A stretch of 64,000 nucleotides of DNA from positions 51,526 to 115,525 of the forward strand of contig CAVYVZ010000008.1 in assembly GCA_963772065.1 (NCBI GenBank). Reading direction: 5' to 3'. The position numbers and the translations under genes are program-made. Source of the DNA: an uncultured Acidobacteriota bacterium. Its GTDB lineage: Bacteria > Acidobacteriota > Vicinamibacteria > Vicinamibacterales > UBA2999. Shown piece after piece: positions 2,728 to 62,395 of this stretch. Each line of letters opens with the position of its first letter. Within the stretch, counting starts at the first letter, position 1. Under the pieces are notes generated by a model. The model made no database searches. It worked only from the letters and a program-made list of their open reading frames with translations, and was not told the DNA's origin.

Positions 2728-3924
2728 CTAGTCGCGATCCAGATAAGCCTTGAGTGCCGCCGCCTGTACATCTTTCAAGGGGACGCCATGCTCGCGCGCA
2801 AGGCGCTCGCAGTCGTCGAATTCCGGTGACGCGTTGAGCACCTGACCGCCGCGGCGAGCCACCTTCATCTGCACGGGGCCGAGGGGGGTAGCAACGGTCA
2901 CCGACTCACGCTCCAGGCACTCGCGGGCCATCTCGCGGTAGCGCACACCGATGGTCGTCGTCTCGCTGAACACGAGCGACGTCAGGAGCTCCCGGCGATC
3001 CGGGGGCGCGATGACCGTCAGCAGGGTGCCCGGCCGGTTCTTCTTCATCTGCACCGACGTGTAGAACACGTCGAGCGCGCCCTCGGCAAGCAGCCGATCC
3101 ATGAGGACGCCGAAAATCTGCGGGTTCATATCGTCGATCTCGCACTCGATGACGACAACCTCAGTGTAGAGGGCCCCTTTCGCGGCGCCAGCTCGCTCGG
3201 CCTCGCCAATCAGGACGCGCAACACGTTCGGCGTCTCTCCAAAATCGCGCGTGCCGGCGCCGTAGCCAATCTTCCTGATCGTCATCGGCGGCATCGGGCC
3301 GTACCAGCTCGCGTAGCTCGAAACTAGCAATGCCCCGGTCGGCGTCACCAGCTCCGCTTGCTGCTCCCCTGCGTACACCGGCACCCCTTCGAGGAGCCGC
3401 ATCGTGGCGGGCGCCGGCACCGGATACAGGCCGTGCGCCACCTTGACCGTTCCACTTCCCACGTTCAATGGCGACGACACGACTTCGTCGGCACCGAGCC
3501 ATTCGAGGGCGAACACTGACCCCACGATGTCGATAATCGAATCGAGCGCTCCCACCTCGTGCAGGTGCACCTTGTCCATCGTCGTTCCGTGAATCGCGGC
3601 CTCGGCCTCGCCCAGCCGCTCGAACAACACCTTTGCCCTCGCCTTTCCGGCGTCGCTCAGCGCAGATCCGTCAATCAGCTTGTAGACGCCCTTGAGGTGC
3701 CGGTGCGCATGCGCGCGCTCCCCGCCGTCCTCTCCCCGGACGCAGAACTTCGTGGCCGTCACGCCGGCGCGGACCACGCGGTCGGTCCACACCGCGTCGG
3801 GGTCGATCGCGAGGCTCCCGAGCGCGCGCCGCACCTCCTCGAGCGGCACGCCCGCATCGATGAGACTGCCGAGCACCATGTCGCCCGCGGCGCCCGAAAA
3901 GCAGTCGAAGTAGAGGACCTTCAT
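2728..3924 (-). CDS. larC: nickel-pincer cofactor biosynthesis / nickel insertion protein LarC (DUF111)
   Basis: 398 aa; MKVLYFDCFSGAAGDM N-terminus and full-length DUF111-like sequence. Stop abuts metG start. Confidence 0.8.
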   Translation of the reverse strand: MKVLYFDCFSGAAGDMVLGSLIDAGVPLEEVRRALGSLAIDPDAVWTDRVVRAGVTATKFCVRGEDGGERAHAHRHLKGVYKLIDGSALSDAGKARAKVLFERLGEAEAAIHGTTMDKVHLHEVGALDSIIDIVGSVFALEWLGADEVVSSPLNVGSGTVKVAHGLYPVPAPATMRLLEGVPVYAGEQQAELVTPTGALLVSSYASWYGPMPPMTIRKIGYGAGTRDFGETPNVLRVLIGEAERAGAAKGALYTEVVVIECEIDDMNPQIFGVLMDRLLAEGALDVFYTSVQMKKNRPGTLLTVIAPPDRRELLTSLVFSETTTIGVRYREMARECLERESVTVATPLGPVQMKVARRGGQVLNASPEFDDCERLAREHGVPLKDVQAAALKAYLDRD

Positions 3925-3940
3925 CGTAGACGCAATCCCA

Positions 3941-4618
3941 TCATCTTATCGCGAGCAACCCGGCTTCCTGCAGGCTGACGTAGCGGTGCGCCGTGAGGAT
4001 GATGTGATCGACGACGTGAATGCCCATGACCTGGCCCGCCTCGAGCATGCGTTCCGTCAGCTCGAGGTCGTCGGCGCTCGGCGTCGGATCGCCCGAGGGA
4101 TGGTTGTGAAACAGCACGATGGCGGCGGCCGACGCCACCGCGGCTTCGCGAAACACCTCGCGCGGATGCGCGACCGTTGCGTCGATGGATCCGATCGCGA
4201 TGATCTTGATGCGCAGGATGTGGAGCTTCGAGTCGAGCAGCACGAGGCCGAACTGCTCCACCGGCGACGCGCCGAACTGCGGCAGCAGGTGTCGTGCAAT
4301 CTGGCGGGGCGATGTGAGGCGCGCGCGGGCGATCGGCCCGCGCGTGAGGGTACGGCGGCCGAGTTCGACGGCGGCGAGCACCTGCGCGGCGCGGGCGCGG
4401 CCGATGCCGGATACGTGCATCAGCTCGGCGAGGTCCGTTCGCGTGAGGCCGTAGAGCCCGTCGACGTGCGTGAGCACCTGATTGGCGAGCGCGAGCGCAC
4501 CAGCATCGCGCGAGCCGCTGCCGAGAATCACGGCGAGCAGCTCGTTGTCGCCGAGCGCGCCGGGACCGAGTCGTTCCAGCTTCTCACGCGGCCTGTCGTA
4601 CGGCGCCAGGTGTTTCAT
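3941..4618 (-). CDS. radC: RadC-family JAB/MPN domain protein
   Basis: HhH GIGRARAAQ plus JAMM motif HNHPSGDPTPSADD. ATG 4618 (MKHLAPYDRPREKL) preferred over TTG 4630. Confidence 0.85.
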   Translation of the reverse strand: MKHLAPYDRPREKLERLGPGALGDNELLAVILGSGSRDAGALALANQVLTHVDGLYGLTRTDLAELMHVSGIGRARAAQVLAAVELGRRTLTRGPIARARLTSPRQIARHLLPQFGASPVEQFGLVLLDSKLHILRIKIIAIGSIDATVAHPREVFREAAVASAAAIVLFHNHPSGDPTPSADDLELTERMLEAGQVMGIHVVDHIILTAHRYVSLQEAGLLAIR

Positions 4619-12718: not shown

Positions 12719-14350
12719 GTGTCGCGTCTGCTTGCCGTGATGGCCGGTGTGGCCGGCATCGCAGCGTGGACGATGCACGCCCAGCGCGGGCTCGTTCTCA
12801 GTCACTACGACGCGAAGGCGCATCTCGTCGTCGCCCGCCGCGTCTTCGACAATCTCACGCCCGGCTGGCAGCAGATCGGCGCGGTGTGGCTGCCGCTGCC
12901 GCACCTGCTCAACATGGTGCCTACTCAGGTCGACTGGTTCTACCAGACTGGAATCGCCGCGTCCGCGCTCTCGATCCTGAGCTTCTGCATCTGCGCGTGG
13001 GCGACCGCTCGATTGGTCCTTGCGGTGACCGGGTCGGTAGCGGGCGCAGCCGCCTCGGCTGCCGTGCTCGCCCTCAATCCGAACGTCCTCTACCTCCAGG
13101 CCACGCCGATGACGGAGCCGCTGCTCCTCGCCTTGTCGTCGCTGGCAGTGCTGTGGCTGTTCGAGTGGGCGCAGACGGATCGAGACGACGTACCGCGGCA
13201 TCTCGGCCTGGCGCTCGCGGCGCTCGCCTGGACACGCTATGAAGGATGGGCCGTGATTGGCGCTGCCCTCGCTGCTGCGGCGTTCGCGACATGGCGGCGT
13301 GGCGCGTCAGCGCGCGTCGTGGCGATGCGCACGATGCGCCTCGCGTTATGGCCGGGTGTGGCCGTCATCGTGTTTCTGATCAACAGCCGGATCACTGTGG
13401 GCGCCTGGTTCGTGTCGGGCGGCTTTTACGTTCCCGATCCCACGTATCAAGGCAGGCTCGGGCGTTCGTTCGTGGCGATCTGGTGGGGCACGCACCAGTT
13501 GAGCGGCTATGTGATCGAGATCGTCGGGCTGGCCACGGCCGTCGTGCTGATCGCGCGCACGTTCGCCCGGCGGCAGGACGCGGCGCTGCTCCTGCCGACG
13601 GCGCTTCTTGCCGCCGCGGCGCTCCCGTTCTATGCGTTCTTCGAAGGCCACCCATATCGGATCCGCTACATGATGCCCGTCGTCGGCGCGTGCGCCGCAC
13701 TCGCCGGAATCGGCGTCGGGATGTTCGGGCGCAAGGCCGCCGCCCTGGGCTGGGTGCTCGCGATTGGGCTCGTGGCTGCGACCGTCATCGAATCACCGCC
13801 GTGGTCGCGTGACGCCCCGCTTCTGCTGGAGGCGCAGTGGGACCGCCCGAACAGCGCCGCCCGCCGCCGCGTGAGCGCCTGCCTCGCCGGCGAGTACCAG
13901 GGCGAAAAGATCCTCGCGAGCATGGGGTCGCTTGCGCACTACATGCAGGAGCTCTCGCATGAGGGCCTCGACATTTCTGATTTCGTCAACGAAGGGAACG
14001 GCGTGATCTGGGAGATGGCGCTCGAGACGGGGCCGGCGCCGCACGCGGGCTGGATGCTGGTGGAGGAGCAGGCGGAAGGCGGCGACGTTCTCGCGCAACT
14101 CATCCGCCAGCGCCCAAACTTTCTGGACGGCATGACGCGCACCTGTGACGGCGGTGGAGTCACTCTCTATCGTAAGGCAAAAGGCAAAAGGCAAAAGGTA
14201 AAAGGTAAAAGGCAAATGATGATTCCTACGAGTTGCATCGAAGCGAGCGTGCTGCTTCGAAGGCACTCGCGTGAATCACAATTTACCTTTTACCTTTTAC
14301 CTTTTGCCTTGTATCAACGTCCGAATCGCATACCGATGGTGAACGAGTAA
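12719..14350 (+). CDS. GT-C fold (ArnT/PMT-like) membrane glycosyltransferase; C-terminus encoded by repeat element
   Basis: About 10 TM helices then a soluble C-domain. Start GTG 12719 or ATG 12740/12674 (uncertain). No stop before the 14174-14310 element, so the ORF reads through it (KAKGKRQKVKGKRQ...FTFYLLPFAL) and ends inside the convergent gene. Confidence 0.6.
   Translation: MSRLLAVMAGVAGIAAWTMHAQRGLVLSHYDAKAHLVVARRVFDNLTPGWQQIGAVWLPLPHLLNMVPTQVDWFYQTGIAASALSILSFCICAWATARLVLAVTGSVAGAAASAAVLALNPNVLYLQATPMTEPLLLALSSLAVLWLFEWAQTDRDDVPRHLGLALAALAWTRYEGWAVIGAALAAAAFATWRRGASARVVAMRTMRLALWPGVAVIVFLINSRITVGAWFVSGGFYVPDPTYQGRLGRSFVAIWWGTHQLSGYVIEIVGLATAVVLIARTFARRQDAALLLPTALLAAAALPFYAFFEGHPYRIRYMMPVVGACAALAGIGVGMFGRKAAALGWVLAIGLVAATVIESPPWSRDAPLLLEAQWDRPNSAARRRVSACLAGEYQGEKILASMGSLAHYMQELSHEGLDISDFVNEGNGVIWEMALETGPAPHAGWMLVEEQAEGGDVLAQLIRQRPNFLDGMTRTCDGGGVTLYRKAKGKRQKVKGKRQMMIPTSCIEASVLLRRHSRESQFTFYLLPFALYQRPNRIPMVNE
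14174..14310. repeat. word-repeat hairpin element E1 (AAAAGGY heptamers / complement)
   Basis: Left arm 14174-14216 = 6x AAAAGG(C/T). Right arm 14282-14310 = 4x complement. Centre contains a nested hairpin CGAGT..TCGAAGC..GCTTCGA..ACTCG (14229-14269). Confidence 0.85.
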
Positions 14351-15012
14351 GTCCAGCCACCGAGATCGATCTTCGGACCGAGGAACTCCTCGGGAAGGTC
14401 TGCCTCCGCCGAGTGATACCGCACTTCTCCGCCAACGGAGTACGAGTCCGCCGCGAAGCGAATCCCGCCGAACGCGATCGGGCCTGTCGCGTTGCCGTCG
14501 GCGACATAGCGCTCGCGGAAGATGCTGTCGTCCCGGAAATCGACGAACTCACCGTCTTCGCTGTACCGCCAGTTGAAGATGCCGAGCCCCGCGCCGAAGT
14601 AGGGCTGAACGCTGTTTGACTGGCCGAGCGGCAGCACGCGCACCGTGAAGCTGACGGGCACGAGGCGCAGCCGGAGATCCTGATCGATCTCCGTACCGTC
14701 GTCATCGACGAAATCTTCGTAGACCGTGGGCACCGTGCGCCGATAGAAGCCGATGCCCGCACCAGCCTCGAAGTGCTGTCCGATTGGAATCAGCCATTCA
14801 CCGCTGACCGAGCCGCCGGTGAAGTCGCCCATCTCGAACACGAGGAAATCGCGATTCTCGACGAGCGTGTCGCCCGAGACGCGCGCGTCGAATCCGCGCG
14901 GCGAGAAACCGCCGAGCGTGAAGTTCAGTGTCTGTTGGGCCGCGACCGGGGCTGGTATGGCCGCGACGCACGCACCGGCGAGCAGCAATGAGGACGCAAG
15001 ACGTGTCACCAT
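14314..15012 (-). CDS. outer-membrane beta-barrel protein (OmpW/porin-like)
   Basis: Signal peptide ...AAIPAPVAAQQ, alternating strands, C-terminal FTIGMRFGR. Confidence 0.7.
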   Translation of the reverse strand: MVTRLASSLLLAGACVAAIPAPVAAQQTLNFTLGGFSPRGFDARVSGDTLVENRDFLVFEMGDFTGGSVSGEWLIPIGQHFEAGAGIGFYRRTVPTVYEDFVDDDGTEIDQDLRLRLVPVSFTVRVLPLGQSNSVQPYFGAGLGIFNWRYSEDGEFVDFRDDSIFRERYVADGNATGPIAFGGIRFAADSYSVGGEVRYHSAEADLPEEFLGPKIDLGGWTYSFTIGMRFGR

Positions 15013-15094
15013 GCCGCCCCAGAGAGCACGGCGTATGCCAGCGGCTCAGGTGAAAACACGCATGTTCCGAGGAGTGGCCTGTCGCTCCCGAAGG

Positions 15095-19071: not shown

Positions 19072-19162
19072 GGCCACGAAGAACACGAAGGTCACGAAGC
19101 ACACGAAGCGCGTCTTGAATTTGATGATCTTCGTGTCTTCGTGATCTTCGTGGCCTTCGTGG
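19072..19162. repeat. word-repeat hairpin element E2 (NNCACGAAG x4 / CTTCGTGNN x4)
   Basis: Left arm 19072-19108, loop 19109-19128, right arm 19129-19162. Cores pair, dinucleotide spacers do not. Lies between convergent gene ends. Confidence 0.85.
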
Positions 19163-21707: not shown

Positions 21708-22918
21708 GCGGCAGCCTCGGGGTCGTCGAGCTCGCCGTACACGCGCTCCAGCTGCGACAGCAGATGTCGCCGTCTCACCTGGTAGCGCTCGTCGTCGATG
21801 CGGCCCGCGCGGCGTTGCTCCTCCACTTTCACCAGCTCGCCGTACAGCGAGTCGCGATGCGCCACGAGCCGCCGGCGCTCGTCGCGCCGATCGTCGCGGC
21901 GCAATGCGAGCCACACCCCGACGGCGACGACTAACGCGGCGATGCCGAGGGCGACGTTTCGCGGCCAGGTGCTGTGGTGCGGCAGGTTCGTCAGCTGGAT
22001 CGTCAGCTCCGATCCAGCGGCGAGGGCGCCGCCGCTGGCGCTCTGGAAGGGTGTGCCGTCTGCCGTCTTCACCTCTCCGCGATCGGGTAGTTGCGGCGAC
22101 GTGAGCTCGAGAGCGCCGACTTTTTCCGCGAATACGGCAACCCGCTGCAGCGGCACAGGAAATGTCTGCCGGACGGTTGCGGCACCGCCGTCGTAGAGAA
22201 GCTGAAAACCGATCTGGATCGACGACGTGCCGGGCGGAAACGGACCGGCAATCGTGACGCGATCGCCCTGCGCCGTGGCACCGGCGAACGAGCCCTGCAT
22301 CACGCGCACGCCGCCGGCGCCGGCCGGCAGATCGACGATCAGCGGTCCTCCGGTGTCCACGCGCGTGCGAGCCGTGTTCACGACATCGAGCAGGTAGAAG
22401 ACGCTCAGCGCGTCGTTCTGGAATTCGAAGACGAATCGCGAGTCGCTCCCGAAGACCACCGACCCTCTCACGGCCGGCGCGCTCGCGGCGTCGGCGGCCT
22501 CCTTGTCGCGGCGCGCGCGCGCCCGCTCGAGACCGGCGATGAGGATGACGCGGACGCCTCCGCTGCCGGGCACCTGGAACGGCTGCGACGTCAGCGATTC
22601 GCCATCGACGACGGCATGGGCCGTGGCGCTCGCGCCTTTGGGCAGCCCGGTGATCCGTACGCGGCCGGAGTCGTCTGTTGTCGCCTTGCGCGTCGCGCCG
22701 CCGGCGGAAACCGTGACCTCGTGGCCGATGATGTTGTTGCCGAGAGACTCGCGTACGAGCCGCACCGAGACGTCGCCGTCCGGCAGTTCGGGAGCCGGAA
22801 GCGCCCGTCCGGCGATCTGCGACGGATCCGGCATGTTGATCTGCGCCAGCAGATGGCCCAGGGCCCAAGGCTCGAGCCCCAGGGCCCAAAGCCCAAGGCC
22901 CAGGGCCCAAGGCCTCAT
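21704..22918 (-). CDS. CarboxypepD_reg-like domain membrane-anchored protein embedded in the ccm cluster
   Basis: Signal peptide MRPWALGLGLWALGLEPWALG encoded by a heptamer array. Ig-like VSVRLV...GHEVTV...TDDSGRVRITGL. C-terminal TM plus charged coiled tail. Confidence 0.6.
   Translation of the reverse strand: MRPWALGLGLWALGLEPWALGHLLAQINMPDPSQIAGRALPAPELPDGDVSVRLVRESLGNNIIGHEVTVSAGGATRKATTDDSGRVRITGLPKGASATAHAVVDGESLTSQPFQVPGSGGVRVILIAGLERARARRDKEAADAASAPAVRGSVVFGSDSRFVFEFQNDALSVFYLLDVVNTARTRVDTGGPLIVDLPAGAGGVRVMQGSFAGATAQGDRVTIAGPFPPGTSSIQIGFQLLYDGGAATVRQTFPVPLQRVAVFAEKVGALELTSPQLPDRGEVKTADGTPFQSASGGALAAGSELTIQLTNLPHHSTWPRNVALGIAALVVAVGVWLALRRDDRRDERRRLVAHRDSLYGELVKVEEQRRAGRIDDERYQVRRRHLLSQLERVYGELDDPEAAA
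22856..22914. repeat. tandem heptamer array E3 (GCCCARG x8) inside coding sequence
   Basis: 8 consecutive 7-nt units with a central CTCGAG. On the minus strand it encodes the (WALGxxx) signal peptide of the 21704-22918 gene. Confidence 0.85.
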
Positions 22919-22925
22919 CACGCCT

Positions 22926-23534
22926 TTAGCCGTGAGCCTTGAGCTCTGAGCTTTCATTGAGCTGCTGACCGCAGGCTTTGCAGAACCGCGCGTCGCTGTC
23001 ATTCGCCGTACCGCACGCGCAGGACGATCGGAGGCGGGCAGGCGGGACCTTCAGTCGGGTGGCGAGCTCACGCTCGATCTCGCTGCGGTATCCCGCGCCG
23101 CGATCGAGCTGCCGCAGCAGACCGGAGGCGCGGGCGCGCAAGCGCGCGCTCACCTCCGTAAAATCGCCGTCCGCCACTTTCCCCATTGCCCGATCGAACT
23201 CGAGATCCTTGATGGCGCGCAGCACCAGCGTCTTCTCGCGCTCGAGCGCATTGCGCGTCCGTCCGCCGAGGAGCTGCCCGCCCCGCGCCCGCTGCTCGCC
23301 CCCGAGCGGACCAAGCATCCGCCAGGCGGCGATGCCCACGCACGCCGCCGCGCCGACGATCAGGCTGAGGAGAACGACGGCGGCCGGAGTGGCCTCCCGC
23401 GTCACGAACACGACGGCCGTGGCGCCGGCCAGCCCCGCCAGCGTGAAGAACTGCCAGGGCTGGAGTTGCTCGTGCGAGGGCGCGGCATCCGCCGCGTCAC
23501 CCTCGCGTCGATCAATCGAGGCTTCGGAGCTCAT
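22926..23534 (-). CDS. two-TM membrane protein with C-terminal zinc-ribbon
   Basis: TM helices FFTLAGLAGATAVVFV / VVLLSLIVGAAACVGIAAW; CACG...CKACG zinc-ribbon at the C-terminus. Confidence 0.5.
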   Translation of the reverse strand: MSSEASIDRREGDAADAAPSHEQLQPWQFFTLAGLAGATAVVFVTREATPAAVVLLSLIVGAAACVGIAAWRMLGPLGGEQRARGGQLLGGRTRNALEREKTLVLRAIKDLEFDRAMGKVADGDFTEVSARLRARASGLLRQLDRGAGYRSEIERELATRLKVPPARLRSSCACGTANDSDARFCKACGQQLNESSELKAHG

Positions 23535-29226: not shown

Positions 29227-29559
29227 ATGATACCGGTTCAACGGCTGGTGCCGGAGGCGCTTGCCGAGGTGCTTCGAAAGGCGCCGCTGAGCGCCGAGAA
29301 GGTGGCATTCGCCTGGCGCACGGCCGTTGGTGCGTCAGTCGATCGGGTCAGCAGCGTTCGTCTGGATGGCCACACGCTGCGGGTCCGCGCCCGGGACGCG
29401 AGCTGGCAGCGCGAGATCGAGCGCTCGGCGTCGCTCATCTGCGCGCGTCTCGACGCGCTCCTGGGAAAGGATGTCGTCCGCGGTCTGGACGTCAGTTTGG
29501 GGTCTGGCCCCTATGGTGCCAGGTCTCCCCAAGAACCCTCAGGAGGCCTGGCACCATAG
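29227..29559 (+). CDS. DUF721 (DciA-like) protein; 3' end runs into hairpin E4
   Basis: [40 protein letters not shown] pattern typical of DUF721. Last about 20 aa encoded by the repeat. Confidence 0.6.
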
Positions 29560-29572
29560 GGGCCAGACCCCA
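29498..29572. repeat. perfect 26-bp inverted repeat hairpin E4
   Basis: TGGGGTCTGGCCCCTATGGTGCCAGG (29498-29523) / exact reverse complement (29547-29572). 23-nt loop contains AGGAGG. The last arm base is the A of the thiolase ATG. Confidence 0.9.
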
Positions 29573-30753: not shown

Positions 30754-30841
30754 CGTTCCAGGTTCCAGGTTCCCCGTTCCAGGTTCGTGTTCTTTGTTCG
30801 GTTCTCGGTTCTCAGTTCTCGGTTCTCGGTTCTTTGTTCGT
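30754..30841. repeat. left arm of four-helix-bundle cassette 1 (GGTTC-rich 7-nt words)
   Basis: Starts immediately after the thiolase TAA. Imperfect reverse complement of 31257-31349 (shared CCAGGTTCC..., GGTTCGTGTTCT...). Confidence 0.8.
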
Positions 30842-31136
30842 CCGTCACGTTGCATCGCCTGAGCGATGTAGCCGCGATCGACGGCGTCCCTCAGGTGCCC
30901 GCAACACTCCTTGAGCGAAGCGCGGGCGTTGACGACCATGCGTCCGAAATCTCTCGGGTAAAAGCGCGCGAATCCTTCCTCGATCTGGCTCACCGCCGAC
31001 GCGGCGGACTCACGCGTTGATCGCGGAGTTTGAAGTCAGCGGCGATGGAACTCGTCCCCACAACCTCGTACACCGCGAGTTTGAAGCGATACGTGAGCTG
31101 CCACGCTCGAAGATCCTCAACACGGCCGGCGGTCAT
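30842..31136 (-). pseudogene. four-helix-bundle protein (Avd / 23S rRNA IVS protein family), decayed copy
   Basis: MTAGRVEDLRAWQLTYRFKLAVYEVV...FKLRDQ | TRESAASAVSQIEEGFARFYPRDFGRMVVNARASLKECCGHLRDAVDRGYI. Frameshift at AA 31017-31018. Helix 4 is missing and the frame stays open through the arm (RTKNREPRTENREP...). Confidence 0.65.
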
Positions 31137-31256
31137 CCGATCCGCAAGTGCACATGGAATGCCGCGACGATCTGGGCCCGAATTCGCCGACAGGATGCCA
31201 AAGTACGCAGATTGCAAGCGCGTCAGCGTCAGTTCGGTACGATCAATTTGCGTCGA

Positions 31257-31349
31257 GACCAGAACCCCGAACCCAGAACCGCGAACCAAGAACCAAGAAC
31301 AGAACGCAGAACACGAACCCGGAACCTGGAACCGGGAACCTGGAACCGG
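31257..31349. repeat. right arm of cassette 1
   Basis: GAACC-rich words, reverse complement of 30754-30841. Ends 10 nt before the convergent sulfatase stop. Confidence 0.8.
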
Positions 31350-60039: not shown

Positions 60040-60228
60040 GTCGTTCACGCTTCTGTGTTCTCTCTGCTCGGTTCGTGTTCAGGTTCGGTTCGGTTCGGTT
60101 CGGTTCGTCGTTCGCATTCATCGTTCGTCGTTCGGAGGCCCGAACCGTGAAGGTTCGAACCCAGAACCCGAACCGAACGATGAAGCTGAAGATGAACCGA
60201 GCAGAGAGAACGCAGAAGCGTGAACGAC
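60040..60228. repeat. ORF-less long hairpin element E8 sharing termini with cassette 2
   Basis: Outer 38 nt of the arms match 37/38 (GTCGTTCACGCTTCTG[T/C]GTTCTCTCTGCTCGGTTC). GGTTC words inside; apical CGAACC-GTGAA-GGTTCG. Begins 1 nt after the ppiC-like stop and contains the GTG start of the next gene. Confidence 0.85.
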
Positions 60229-60600
60229 GTACGCCTTGACGTGTGGCTGGATGTCGCCTGTCTTTTCAAGACCCGCTCCGAGGCGAAGCGGGCCTGCGAG
60301 GGCGGCAAGGTGGAGGTCAACGGCGAGCACGCGAAGCCGCACCGTGCCGTTCGCGAGGGCGACGAAATTCGCGTGAGCCGTGGATTCGGCCGCCACCAGA
60401 TCGTCGTCGTGCGCGGCGTCATGGACGCGCACGTGAAGAAGTCCGACGCCCGCACGCTCTACGAAGACCTCACCCCCCGACCCACGCCTGAAGAAGTCGA
60501 GATTCGCCGCATGGATCGCATCTATCGCGCGGCCGCCGCGGCCGCCGGCACCGATCGCCGCAAGCGGCGGGAGATTCGGAGTGCGAAGCAGCGATACTAG
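60220..60600 (+). CDS. S4-domain RNA-binding protein (Hsp15-like)
   Basis: VRLDVWLDVACLFKTRSEAKRACEGGKVEVNG S4 motif; basic C-terminal tail. Confidence 0.75.
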   Translation: MNDVRLDVWLDVACLFKTRSEAKRACEGGKVEVNGEHAKPHRAVREGDEIRVSRGFGRHQIVVVRGVMDAHVKKSDARTLYEDLTPRPTPEEVEIRRMDRIYRAAAAAAGTDRRKRREIRSAKQRY

Positions 60601-60601
60601 A

Positions 60602-60722
60602 CGTCGTTCACTCTTCTGAGTGCACGCTTCTCGGTTCGTGTTCAGCTTCGCCGTTCGATTCCTCGTTCGCGGTTCGCGGTTCGCGGTTCGTGGTTCTTGT
60701 TCTCTGTTCGGGGTTCGTGGTT
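60602..60722. repeat. left arm of four-helix-bundle cassette 2
   Basis: Starts 2 nt after the S4 gene TAG. (GCGGTTC)n words. 26/26 nt CGCTTCTCGGTTCGTGTTCAGCTTCG shared with the reverse complement of the right arm. Confidence 0.85.
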
Positions 60723-60838
60723 CCCAAATCCTGCGCGCCGCGATGCCTTCCCGCGTGGCAGATCTTCGCATCCGCGAAGTGCTTTGTGTGTTTTCAACCA
60801 GCAATCCGTGCGGCATTATCCGTGCACTATGAGTCCGC

Positions 60839-61395
60839 ATGGGAGTTCATCGTTTCACCGAATTGCGAGCGTGGCAGGTGTGCAACACCTACAAGCGAGC
60901 CATCTACCGGCTGTGCGCGGCCGGCGCGTTGTCGCGTGATTTTGAACGGCGAGACCAGCTCGAACGATCAGCCGCGAGCCGTGTGCGCATCTGTCGGAAG
61001 GGTTTGGTCGATTCAGCCCGCCAGATTTCGCGCGCTACTGCGTGATGGCGCGGTCGTCACTGATGGAGTCGCAGAACCACCTGATCGACATTGTCGACCG
61101 AGGCCACATCACCGAGGACGCGAGAGTCGAACATAATGCGATGGCCGAAGCGGCCCTCGAGGAAGTGACTGGCCTGATGGAGTACCTTCAGTCGCCCGAA
61201 GCGCTCCGAAATGCGCGTCGAGCGCGCGAACGGAGAATTGAGAACCGCGCGAAACGCGCGAACCAGGAACGCGAACCCCGAACCAAGAACCGCGAACCTC
61301 GAACAGCGAACCGCGAACCCCGAACAGAGAAGCGAACCCCGAAGCTGAACACGAACCGAGAAGCGAGAAGGCGAAGCGTGAACGACGACGAATGA
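60839..61395 (+). CDS. four-helix-bundle protein (Avd / 23S rRNA IVS protein family) with arm-encoded (NREPRTx)n tail; one apparent frameshift
   Basis: FTELRAWQVCNTYKRAIYRL / RRDQLERSAAS | PCAHLSEGFGRFSPPDFARYCVMARSSLMESQNHLIDIVDRGHI / AMAEAALEEVTGLMEYL. CC 60979-80 should be CCC to stay in frame. Stop directly after the right arm. Confidence 0.75.
61240..61387. repeat. right arm of cassette 2
   Basis: (GAACCGC)n words, reverse complement of the left arm. Terminus ...GTGAACGACG pairs with CGTCGTTCAC at 60602. Confidence 0.85.
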
Positions 61396-61410: not shown

Positions 61411-62395
61411 GTGCCGCGCAACCAGGAAGTCATCCGGCAGTGGAAGGTGCTGCACGCGCTGGAGTCGTCGCGGCATGGCGCCTCCATCGACTCGCTCGGC
61501 GGGCGATCTCGAGGTGACGACGCGGACGATCCGGCGCGACCTGGCGGCGCTGCAGGAAGCGGGGTTTCCGCTCTTCGACACGCGCGACGAGGACGGCCGC
61601 GTGCGCTGGCGGCTCGACGGCCAGGTGCTCAAGGGCCTCGATACCGGCTTCACCCTCGGCGAGCTGTGCGCGCTCTATTTGAGCCGGAACCTCCTCGAGT
61701 CGGTCGCCGGCACACCGTTTCAGCGCGACCTCGGTCACGCCTTCGCGCGGCTTCAGGGGGCGCTCTCCCCTCGCATGCGTCAGTTTCTCGATCGGCTGCC
61801 TGGTGTGCTCGCGGCCAAGCCGGGGCCGCGCGCGCGCGGCGGCGAGGCGGCGTCGGACATCGTGGCGCGCCTCCTCGAGGCGACCCTGCACTTTCGCATC
61901 GCGACGATGCGGTATCACTCGGTATCGAGCGCGAAGATTAAAGACTATGTGATCCACCCATACCGTCTCGCGTTCGCGCAAGGCGGGCTGTACCTGCTGG
62001 CGTACGTCCCCGCGTACGAGGACGTGCGCACGTTCGCGGTCGACCGCATCAAGGCGGTGTCTCTCGAGAAGCAGACGTTCACGCCGCGTCGCGACCTGCC
62101 GGAAGACGTCTTCGCCAATTCGCTGGGCGTGAACACGGGGCCGCCCGAACGCGTGGAGATCGCCTTCGACGCGCAGATCGCCCCCTACATCCGCGCGCGC
62201 GTCTGGCACGCATCGCAGGAGCTGCGCGACGAAACCGACGGCGCGCTGACGCTCACGATGCACGTGTGTCACGATTGGGCGTTGCGAAGCTGGATCCTCA
62301 GCTGGGGCCCGTTTGCCCGTATCCTCTCTCCTGCAAAGCTTGCTGCCCAGATCCGCGAAGACCTCGACGCCGCGAAAGCGAAATATGGGCCATAA
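61411..62395 (+). CDS. HTH-WYL domain transcriptional regulator; apparent frameshift in the HTH
   Basis: GTG 61411 PRNQEVIRQWKVLHALESSRHGASIDSL | GDLEVTTRTIRRDLAALQEAGFPL, then WYL core (HPYRLAFAQGGLYLLAY) and a WCX-like C-terminus. Removing one G at 61498-61503 restores the frame. Confidence 0.8.

Follow-up and report, generated by a model that had tools for sequence, protein, structure and literature searches.

The window, which is the whole 64-kb stretch of DNA analysed here, harbors a compact cassette whose neighbours encode a SurA-like protein, an S4-domain protein, a WYL/WCX regulator and a UPF0182 protein. The element starts at the second base past the stop codon of the S4-domain gene, whose last position is 60600, while the WYL/WCX regulator starts about 25 nt past the right arm; the first-pass annotation of this DNA had set the element exactly between these two genes, 2 nt after a stop codon, and this placement is borne out. 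The features to which the text refers are as follows.

60602-61387, plus strand: cassette, inverted arms of 122 and 148 nt around one ORF
60602-60723, plus strand: left arm, with the outer ~45 nt forming a conserved terminal inverted repeat (TIR) and the inner part made of tandem GGTTCNN heptamers
60730-60762, plus strand: leader dyad showing weak conservation (YTGCN ... N'GCAR, ~20 nt apart), from an alignment of 20 leaders
60812-60826, plus strand: sigma-54-type -24/-12 promoter-like motif GGCATTATCCGTGCA (GG-N10-GC), 13 nt before the ATG
60839-61395, plus strand: four-helix-bundle ORF (PF05635/TIGR02436), encoding a core bundle, an arginine-rich fifth helix and a disordered tail derived from the right arm
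61240-61387, plus strand: right arm, in which GAACCNN heptamers lead into the conserved TIR (terminus GTGAACGACG), overlapping the 3' end of the ORF
60040-60229, plus strand: hairpin without an ORF, from the same TIR family, flanked by the SurA-like stop codon and the S4 start
30755-31349, minus strand: a second cassette in degenerate form, flanked by a thiolase and a sulfatase/TPR gene

The arms are bounded by the termini CGTCGTTCAC.../...GTGAACGACG, and the left-arm TIR reads GTCGTTCAC-N-CTTCT...CTCGGTTCGTGTTCAG. Inverted arms of about 121 and 148 nt built from GGTTC/GAACC words had been proposed from inspection of the letters; the measured lengths are 122 and 148 nt, the spacing of GTTC/GAAC is mostly 7 nt, and the autocorrelation at a lag of 7 reaches 0.57 in the left arm and 0.59 in the right arm, versus ~0.25 at other shifts. 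The internal match of 26/26 nt was likewise exact (60625-60650 against 61340-61365) and is the longest perfect complementarity between the arms. When the 801-nt region was folded, the arms were predicted to pair into a single long stem with a free energy of -387.5 kcal/mol, compared with -310 +/- 6 for shuffled sequences (z = -12.4), which places the ORF in the loop of a stable stem, the layout of a 23S rRNA intervening sequence (IVS) that the first reading had recognised. The long TIRs consist of a conserved end of ~45 nt and an expandable array of GTTC-containing heptamers. The outermost ends of the cassette are not sharply defined, and the flanks at some related loci are drawn into the palindrome.

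A 1-nt deletion, in AG(G)CCG near 60978, interrupts the ORF, after which the frame stays open to the stop codon at 61393-61395. After repair of this deletion, the protein exceeded the curated cutoffs of both families to which the first reading had assigned it, with 7e-17 and 62 bits for PF05635 (cutoff 33.8) and 4e-15 and 56.1 bits for TIGR02436 (cutoff 24). The core was modelled by AlphaFold2 with a pLDDT of 88-98, and Foldseek matched the model to XCC0516 (PDB 2GSC; TM 0.89-0.92, rmsd 1.5-1.7), BT_0352 (PDB 2RLD; TM 0.80-0.86) and the accessory protein Avd of diversity-generating retroelements (DGRs; 4DWL, TM 0.84, rmsd 2.1). The helix-2 motif of the family, R-x3-S-x3-N-x2-E (PMC3936711), is found as R43-SAA-S/R47-PCA-H51-LS-E54, with H replacing N in most members of the subfamily and N retained in some. 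An arginine-rich fifth helix is encoded at about 61195-61269, beyond which the frame does read through the right arm in the periodic manner first noticed, giving a tail of (xNxEPRT)-type repeats whose residues 149-185 are predicted to be disordered. Codon comparisons of the ORF (dN/dS 0.033-0.039, dS > 1) indicate strong purifying selection, at a dN/dS of about 0.035, and the C-terminal arginine-rich segment is conserved while its synonymous sites vary freely. PADLOC returned no match, and the sole PHROGs match (0.008) was meaningless. The cargo of the cassette is a single selected gene for an XCC0516/Avd-like bundle with an arginine-rich helix.

Upstream of this gene, all 26 aligned leaders contain the motif YGGCAY-N5-RTGCW without variation, 10-14 nt from the ATG; the motif occurs in a second subfamily too, and has only three matches in the 64 kb, each 12-14 nt before an ATG. 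At the sequence level it has what is expected of a sigma-54 promoter, namely GG-N10-GC with TGGCAC-N5-TTGCW-like flanks, conservation and a fixed distance to the gene, and the cassette thus appears to carry its own -24/-12 promoter-like signal. With the motif 13 nt from the ATG, the implied mRNA is leaderless or almost so, and because the motif lies inside the loop, a transcript of the gene started there would not include the left arm. Modest support was obtained for the dyad named by hand in the leader: the named pairs were paired in 67% of cells versus 26-47% with the partner slid, and the covariation score of 0.198 versus 0.125 was reached by 4 of 500 shuffles; RNAalifold predicted no consensus structure for the 20 leaders. 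One contig carrying a gene of the cassette family was binned as Acidimicrobiia, a group from which rpoN is usually absent.

The second cassette has arms at 30755-30840 and 31259-31349, a promoter-like motif at 31149-31163 and an ATG at 31136; its ORF is frameshifted and lacks helix 4, and it scored 65.6 bits against PF05635 and 56.2 bits against TIGR02436. The ORF-less hairpin at 60040-60229 was predicted to fold with -129.9 kcal/mol (z = -13.4), and its final 9 nt (GTGAACGAC) coincide with the first three codons of the S4 gene, whose start codon is thereby buried in the stem. Further hairpins in the window are built from the unrelated units AAGGCAA and CACGAAGNN. Indel-type frameshifts are carried by both four-helix-bundle ORFs of the window and, relative to the syntenic contig L001, by the WYL gene and a TonB-dependent receptor gene. 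Since both bundle ORFs need a -1 shift, programmed frameshifting was considered and rejected: the two sites differ and the orthologues are unbroken, the WYL and receptor genes are frameshifted as well, and copies in other long-read metagenome-assembled genomes (MAGs) are likewise split.

As the initial reading had stated, the cassette is accompanied by neither rRNA nor DGR components. At the gathering threshold, Rfam detected one tRNA and no rRNA in the 64 kb, no reverse transcriptase domain was present among the flanking genes here or in the syntenic locus L001, and the repeat search revealed neither a template/variable pair nor long direct repeats near the cassette. The cassette has no associated transposase, recombinase or reverse transcriptase.

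Comparison of orthologous sites revealed that the cassette comes and goes. About 50 orthologous SurA-S4-WYL loci lack both cassette and hairpin; in 50 loci, S4 is followed directly by WYL with a spacer of 2-74 nt in 47 of them. The cassette occupies the S4-WYL junction only in the window, in plus orientation, and in the metagenome contigs L001, L002 and L054, in minus orientation, and the sister lineages L053 and L055 lack it. With 49, 45 and 50 of 60 positions identical in the outer arm ends, comparison of the window with L001 was ambiguous between inversion of the inner segment and inversion of the whole element. An ORF-less hairpin of the same family is found at the SurA-S4 junction in four separate parts of the tree. 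Because the spacer measures -4 to +30 nt at both junctions in most of about 60 loci, the short form is taken as ancestral and the long forms as gains, at least four of them at one junction. A search for further copies, empty sites and target duplications had been suggested with the first reading; it yielded the former two and no consistent target-site duplication: a 6-bp direct repeat was present at one of 20 loci (L021), and the others have a palindromic extension of 0-5 nt instead. As in TIR transposons and miniature inverted-repeat elements (MITEs), TIRs are common to dispersed copies and orthologous sites occur both occupied and empty; the fixed-length target-site duplication of such elements was not found. 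Part of this pattern of presence and absence may have arisen without transposition, through deletion or through allele exchange by homologous recombination.

The same packaging was encountered far beyond this operon. Inverted tandem-repeat arms were detected at 40 of 49 related loci, with alignment scores of 41-156 versus a background of ~20-22, and the armed relatives include Vicinamibacterales, Roseivirga, a Desulfobacteraceae MAG and Xanthomonas XCC0516. Far from being a one-off, the cassette is one member of a large cross-phylum class, of which the crystallised XCC0516 is another. The arrays usually hold at least four units, and the unit varies by lineage (GGTTCNN, GATCGTTCG, GGGTTCCAG, AAGTGTTG, GAAATTC and CAGGGCA). 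The ends GTTCAC-N-CTTC ... GAAG-N-GTGAAC, the TIR pattern by which subfamily A is defined, were found at 20 of the 21 loci of this subfamily examined, in different genomes, and in the hairpin at 60040-60229. ORF-less hairpins with the repeat unit of a nearby cassette occur at five loci (L005, L038, L040, L041 and L049), and loop lengths fall into two groups. In Xanthomonas, XCC0516 orthologues lie between accB and accC inside inverted GGGAATC arrays; this copy is common to Xanthomonas and Pseudoxanthomonas and hence looks stably inherited rather than recently mobile. In unbiased DNA the density of the subfamily is low, at one gene in 262 kb.

These observations are, in our judgement, best accounted for by an IVS-class foldback insertion cassette situated outside rRNA, in a tiny spacer of the SurA-S4-WYL operon, an explanation that we consider somewhat better than even. 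It agrees with the free-standing IVS-like element envisaged by the first-pass annotation, which fits the absence at about 50 sites, the inversion in relatives and the ORF-less derivative, and an overlooked insertion element is preferred to a one-off because the packaging recurs in several phyla and comes and goes at one site. The alternative that treats the arms as ordinary structures of the host, for instance bidirectional terminators, insulators or RNase III sites, born in place by slippage and palindrome-perfecting template switching around an insulated host gene, with nothing moving and all differences being deletions, seems decidedly unlikely. It would suit the lack of both a target-site duplication and a mobility enzyme, the flanks sometimes pulled into the palindrome, the unrelated tandem-repeat hairpins at many intergenic junctions of the operon and the stable inheritance of the Xanthomonadaceae copy; however, the likeness of the outer ~45 nt at ~20 unrelated loci in different genomes has no explanation under such a local origin, the short ancestral spacers make the long forms gains, and the gene family also resides inside 23S rRNA, cas operons (PMC3936711) and accBC. 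An origin as the remnant of a DGR, with the Avd accessory gene as its sole survivor, is effectively refuted: the fold similarity to Avd speaks for it, but neither a reverse transcriptase nor a template/variable pair exists at either cassette or the syntenic loci, the sequence is much nearer to XCC0516, and dozens of relatives share the self-contained layout. A palindromic mis-join in a long-read metagenome assembly, to which the four frameshifted genes might point, has a negligible chance of being correct, since the same cassette lies at the same site in independent JGI metagenome contigs (L001, L002 and L054) and the architecture recurs in many independent assemblies, including finished Xanthomonas chromosomes.

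A more serious competitor, still an unlikely one, is a protein-plus-operator system rather than a parasite, in which a pentamer would bind heptamer arrays in single-stranded nucleic acid (RNA or DNA), each subunit taking one unit, in the manner of TRAP on GAG repeats; the arms would serve autoregulation, and the ORF-less hairpins would be other targets affecting processing, termination or translation of neighbours. Such a system is compatible with a repeat unit that changes with the protein subfamily, with same-unit ORF-less hairpins in the same genomes, with the strong purifying selection and the conserved arginine-rich helix, with arrays that usually hold at least four units, and with the S4 start codon hidden in the stem at 60040-60229. 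XCC0516 is a homopentamer (PMC4990558, citing Lin et al. 2006), and the Xanthomonas GGGAATC arrays are numerous and positionally conserved (PMC4692102). It leaves the inverted arrangement of the arms and the conserved outer 45-nt TIR without explanation, and the AAGGCAA and CACGAAGNN hairpins have no matching protein gene within the 64 kb.

For the insertion cassette, the following scenario can be envisaged. The element would spread, or would once have spread, as DNA, and its repeat arms may promote slippage, inversion and the loss of the loop that gives rise to ORF-less hairpins. Read-through transcription of the host operon would allow the arms to form a duplex of ~120 bp, at which RNase III could excise the cassette, as shown for 23S intervening sequences, and such removal would make insertion in essential transcripts tolerable. 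Mismatches in the arms showed no sense-strand bias towards G:U over A:C (153 against 180, p = 0.15), and for lack of a strand-specific G:U bias the arms do not support an RNA-only role. A broader and rather doubtful proposal unites PF05635 proteins and inverted arrays of tandem heptamers in one system conserved across phyla, in which a pentameric bundle would recognise arrays of ~7-nt units and thereby drive either the spread of cassettes, by a new transposase-less mobility that perhaps homes to matches of its own ends such as GTGAACGAC at the S4 start, or a regulon marked by ORF-less repeat hairpins.

To our knowledge, there has been no explanation since 1993 for ORF-bearing 23S rRNA intervening sequences, the S23p/XCC0516/"four helix bundle protein" family ranks among the commonest uncharacterised small bacterial proteins, and an excess of heptameric repeats has repeatedly been reported without a cause. 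The present analysis suggests that all three belong to a single entity, a gene flanked by inverted arms of heptamers that lodges in operons, rRNA and cas loci. If true, a single recognition system would explain where the ORF-bearing 23S IVS come from, what S23p/XCC0516 does and why heptameric repeats are in excess in Xanthomonas and cyanobacteria, among other bacteria. The accB-XCC0516-accC locus of Xanthomonas campestris offers a tractable test case because its protein has already been crystallised. Cassettes and ORF-less hairpins also split operons, can be mistaken for CRISPR-associated genes, and trouble assemblers and gene callers through read-through tails and frameshifts.

No description of this architecture was found in the literature searched, and several known systems resemble it in part. 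The DGR protein Avd shares the four-helix-bundle fold, a basic character and a presumed nucleic-acid-binding role, whereas the cassette lacks a reverse transcriptase and template/variable repeats, and a profile search detected no sequence similarity between the two proteins. MITEs and foldback elements (Correia, REPIN-type and eukaryotic Foldback) likewise possess TIRs, short ORF-less forms beside ORF-bearing copies, an intergenic location and presence/absence polymorphism, and the arms of eukaryotic Foldback transposons are also made of tandem repeats; in contrast with these, the gene of the cassette is not a known mobility enzyme and no consistent target-site duplication accompanies it. Heptameric repeats have been reported as GGGAATC and GGGGAYT in Xanthomonas and Nostoc (PMC4692102) and as TAACTGA in Beggiatoaceae (PMC4679880); these are also intergenic 7-nt arrays of conserved position and no known function, and GGGAATC is the very unit that flanks XCC0516, yet both papers treat them as direct repeats or G-quadruplex formers and, in the passages searched, draw no link to inverted arms or PF05635 genes.

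Also close are the proteins annotated as "four helix bundle / S23 ribosomal", including XCC0516 and BT_0352, which are of the same family and fold. The orthologues of XCC0516 also sit inside an operon between inverted heptamer arrays, of which no mention was found in the literature searched; the Xanthomonas arms are short (26-30 nt, unit GGGAATC), and the Vicinamibacterales subfamily differs by its arginine-rich fifth helix and by reading through the arm. Another close counterpart is the ORF-bearing 23S IVS of Leptospira and Coxiella, whose S23p ORF belongs to PF05635 and occupies the loop of a long TIR stem inside a heavily used transcript that it does not destroy. The Coxiella IVS, long suspected like other 23S IVS to be a mobile element, has tandem GACAGAT heptamers beside its ORF in a copy number that varies between strains, and is excised by RNase III (PMC4990558). 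The IVS lies in a 23S rRNA helix, whereas the cassette lies in a spacer on the 20-nt scale between protein-coding genes, and its arms are far longer (120-150 nt) and almost wholly heptameric; in contrast with the decaying, probably untranslated ORF of Coxiella, its ORF is under purifying selection and has its own promoter-like motif.

Cassette 1, the element inserted between an S4-domain gene and a WYL regulator, is constructed by repeat-built inverted arms around a four-helix-bundle ORF, and its arms, termini, 26/26-nt match and 7-nt periodicity were all reproduced as described in the first-pass annotation. The main features of the window are as follows.

60602-61387 (+): cassette 1
60602-60723: left arm of cassette 1, terminus CGTCGTTCAC
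61240-61387: right arm of cassette 1, terminus GTGAACGACG
60839 (start) to 61393-61395 (stop): cassette 1 ORF, one base missing in AG(G)CCG near 60978
Flanks of cassette 1: S4-domain gene (stop at 60600) and WYL/WCX regulator
60040-60229: ORF-less hairpin at the SurA|S4 junction
30755-31349 (-): cassette 2, between a thiolase gene and a sulfatase/TPR gene
14174-14310, 19075-19161 and 22855-22951: tandem-repeat hairpins of other units

The arms are exactly complementary at 60625-60650 and 61340-61365 (26/26 nt), and their autocorrelation reaches 0.57-0.59 at a 7-nt shift against about 0.25 at other shifts. Single-strand folding bore out the stable pairing that had been proposed, with the arms forming one long stem (-387.5 kcal/mol vs -310 +/- 6 for shuffles, z = -12.4). 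No rRNA was detected by Rfam in the 64-kb window, in agreement with the earlier description of the locus and its flanking genes.

The family assignment, previously made from sequence motifs, also held: the repaired ORF matched PF05635 at 7e-17 (62 bits, cutoff 33.8) and TIGR02436 at 4e-15. A profile of its subfamily matched XCC0516 (PDB 2GSC) at 1e-9, the crystal structure of which established the fold of the family. The AlphaFold2 model (core pLDDT 88-98) was superposed on 2GSC with a TM score of 0.89-0.92, on BT_0352 (2RLD) with 0.80-0.86, and on Avd (4DWL), an accessory protein of diversity-generating retroelements (DGRs), with 0.84. Among the best 120 of the 646 close homologues, which are mostly 160-230 aa long, the EYLQSPEALRNARRARERRI segment is invariant and is followed by (xNxEPRT)n tails. 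In the C-terminal segment SPEALRNARRARERRIASRPERR, synonymous sites vary freely but the protein sequence is conserved; in the model the segment forms a fifth helix (residues 120-144), the arginine-rich motif of which suggests nucleic-acid binding. The arm-encoded tail beyond this helix is predicted to be disordered; its composition is the same in all three frames because each heptamer moves the reading frame by one base, and its stops differ among homologues. Purifying selection on the ORF is strong (dN/dS 0.033-0.039, dS 1.3-2.4, comparing the window, the syntenic JGI metagenome contig L001 and locus L054).

Both four-helix-bundle ORFs of the window require a -1 shift, at different codons. 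The WYL regulator (~61463-61503) and a TonB-dependent receptor (~46580) are likewise frameshifted relative to their L001 orthologues, with seven other genes intact, and indel errors are probably present in the assembly at about one per 5 kb. Since split ORFs also occur in several long-read MAG copies, and given the differing codons, the other frameshifted genes and the purifying selection, the break in cassette 1 probably stems from a sequencing error, or failing that from a lesion that arose very recently. A programmed frameshift was rejected, as the differing codons, the damage in other window genes and the selection on the ORF all speak against it. Cassette 2 has arms of 85 nt (82% complementary) and a frameshifted ORF matching PF05635 at 5e-18; having lost helix 4 by deletion, it is genuinely degenerate.

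Scanning one genome per species gave 49 loci, mostly from Vicinamibacterales and other Acidobacteriota MAGs, and 47 of them together with L001 and L003 made up the 49 loci of the arm analysis. Inverted arms of 28-182 nt bracket the gene in 40 of these, with alignment scores of 41-156; the nine arm-less loci give a background of 20-22. The arms consist of tandem short units, which vary by lineage.

Arm units by lineage
Close subfamily: GGTTCNN
Second Acidobacteriota subfamily: GATCGTTCG
Locus L040: GGGTTCCAG
Acidimicrobiia-binned contig: a 13-mer
Roseivirga: AAGTGTTG
Desulfobacteraceae MAG: GAAATTC
Terriglobales MAG: CAGGGCA

A conserved terminal repeat, GTTCAC-N-CTTCT...CTCGGTTCGTGTTCAG, makes up the outer ~45 nt of the arms in the close subfamily. 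The XCC0516 orthologues of Xanthomonas and Pseudoxanthomonas are located between accB and accC (L135 2425-2872; L136 2489-2933) and flanked by GGGAATC inverted arrays of 26-30 nt; the 5' end of the ORF appears to read out of the left array. This heptamer is enriched in Xanthomonas intergenic regions, according to a report whose searched passages make no link to the XCC0516 gene (PMC4692102).

Copies and empty sites, expected of a mobile element in the first-pass annotation, were both found. Besides the second cassette and the ORF-less hairpin of the window, there are the 80 loci found by scanning metagenomes with the S4 protein; 50 of them have S4 directly followed by WYL without the four-helix-bundle gene (spacer 2-74 nt in 47/50). 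The remnant spacer of the window (GATTAGGATGAGT) matches the empty-site spacer of locus L061, which places cassette 1 after the stop codon of S4 and before the old spacer. Among the scanned loci, the cassette occupies this site only in the window, L001, L002 and L054; in the latter three the inner segment is opposite in orientation to that of the window (local alignment score 257 reversed vs 13 direct), and the gene that comes next encodes a peptidase S10. Neither of the sister lineages L053 and L055 has the cassette; at the S4|WYL position L055 carries a hairpin built from another unit.

At the SurA|S4 junction, where most loci have a spacer of -4 to +30 nt, same-family hairpins of 100-194 nt were found in the window, L068, L088 and the clade L110/L115/L118, which represent four separate places on the SurA+S4 tree. 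The hairpin of the window (-129.9 kcal/mol, z = -13.4) has outer sequence in common with cassette 1, with 85% identity across 48 nt at the left end and full identity across 15 nt at the right. The base of its stem is formed by the first three codons of S4 (60220-60228, GTGAACGAC), so that a SurA-S4 read-through transcript would bury the start codon in a stem of ~-130 kcal/mol. In many empty loci S4 natively begins with the same GTGAACGAC, a sequence that also makes up the right end of the terminal repeat; hence the start codon becomes the last part of the stem in occupied loci. This identity suggests that insertion was directed to a sequence resembling the end of the element itself; allele exchange by homologous recombination is an alternative. 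Five other loci harbor ORF-less hairpins with the unit of a nearby cassette, and the loops form two size classes, 14-234 nt and 348-1003 nt. Short one-sided arrays at SurA|S4 in L053 (880-920, GAACCTG-type) and L055 (1517-1566, TGAGGAT-type), having no complementary partner, may be remnants of deleted hairpins. No consistent target-site duplication was observed across the cassette loci examined; only L021 has a perfect 6-bp direct repeat, GGTATA (~3771-3776, ~4559-4564), flanking its terminal repeats, which may be such a duplication or chance.

The motif YGGCAY-N5-RTGCW is invariant in 26 aligned leaders, 10-14 nt before the ATG, and recurs in the second subfamily and the Acidimicrobiia-binned copy; its GG-N10-GC spacing is that of sigma-54 -24/-12 promoters. 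A weak dyad, YTGCN...N'GCAR, lies ~60-100 nt upstream in the leader, with modest covariation support. The whole window contains three occurrences of the YGGCAY-N5-RTGCW pattern (1.06 expected), two of which belong to the cassettes. Because the third (15025-15039 (-), TGGCATACGCCGTGCT) precedes the ATG of the unrelated ORF 14314-15012 (-) by 13 nt, with the same promoter-to-ATG geometry, the putative sigma-54-type motif looks like a general promoter type of the host, yielding leaderless mRNAs. A transcript from it would include the right arm and not the left. The unrelated ORF encodes 232 aa with a signal-peptide-like start and no Pfam match, and directly 3' of it, the ORF-less hairpin 14174-14310 adjoins the stop codon; its (AAGGCAA)n and (TTTACCT/TTGCCTT)n arrays fold at -82 kcal/mol over 181 nt.

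Elsewhere in the window, 19075-19161 is a hairpin of 9-nt units (CACGAAGNN / NNCTTCGTG), and its recurrence downstream of S4 in metagenome loci L090 and L099 makes it a second dispersed hairpin family. The GGCCCAA-type array at 22855-22951 folds only partially, and a separate non-periodic hairpin (29498-29572, 31-nt arms, 97% complementary) lies just upstream of the thiolase gene.

The cassette is best explained as an IVS-class foldback insertion element, akin to 23S rRNA intervening sequences (IVSs), outside rRNA. It carries a gene under selection, a putative promoter of its own and repeat-built terminal inverted repeats, and ORF-less derivatives of it exist. The earlier IVS-like interpretation is retained for the foldback layout, the family, and gain and loss. 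Arm mismatches in 41 cassettes exhibited no sense-strand G:U excess (153 sense vs 180 antisense, binomial p = 0.15), so that the pairing of the arms behaves as expected of a terminal inverted repeat at the DNA level. The main rival is that a pentameric four-helix-bundle protein recognises heptamer arrays, the scattered hairpins being its targets. Origin of the arms in place fits poorly with gain, loss and inversion at orthologous sites. A DGR remnant, brought to mind by the resemblance to Avd, and an assembly artefact, brought to mind by the indel errors, also fit poorly; arms bracket the gene in most loci examined, and the cassette recurs at the same site in L001, L002 and L054.

The PF05635 family, its presence in 23S IVSs, its free-standing copies and the heptamer abundance in some genomes are already known. 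In the literature searched, no description was found of PF05635 genes being consistently packaged, across phyla, in inverted tandem-repeat arms, nor of the ORF-less derivatives, insertion polymorphism or conserved promoter of the cassettes, which is not proof of novelty. Genes of the family have been noted wedged within cas operons (PMC3936711). The foldback insertion element finds its counterpart in the 23S IVS of Coxiella, where tandem GACAGAT heptamers, differing in copy number between strains, adjoin the S23p ORF and RNase III excises the IVS (PMC4990558); by analogy, the arms may have a role at the RNA level when the cassette is read through, with RNase III cutting it out as it does in rRNA.
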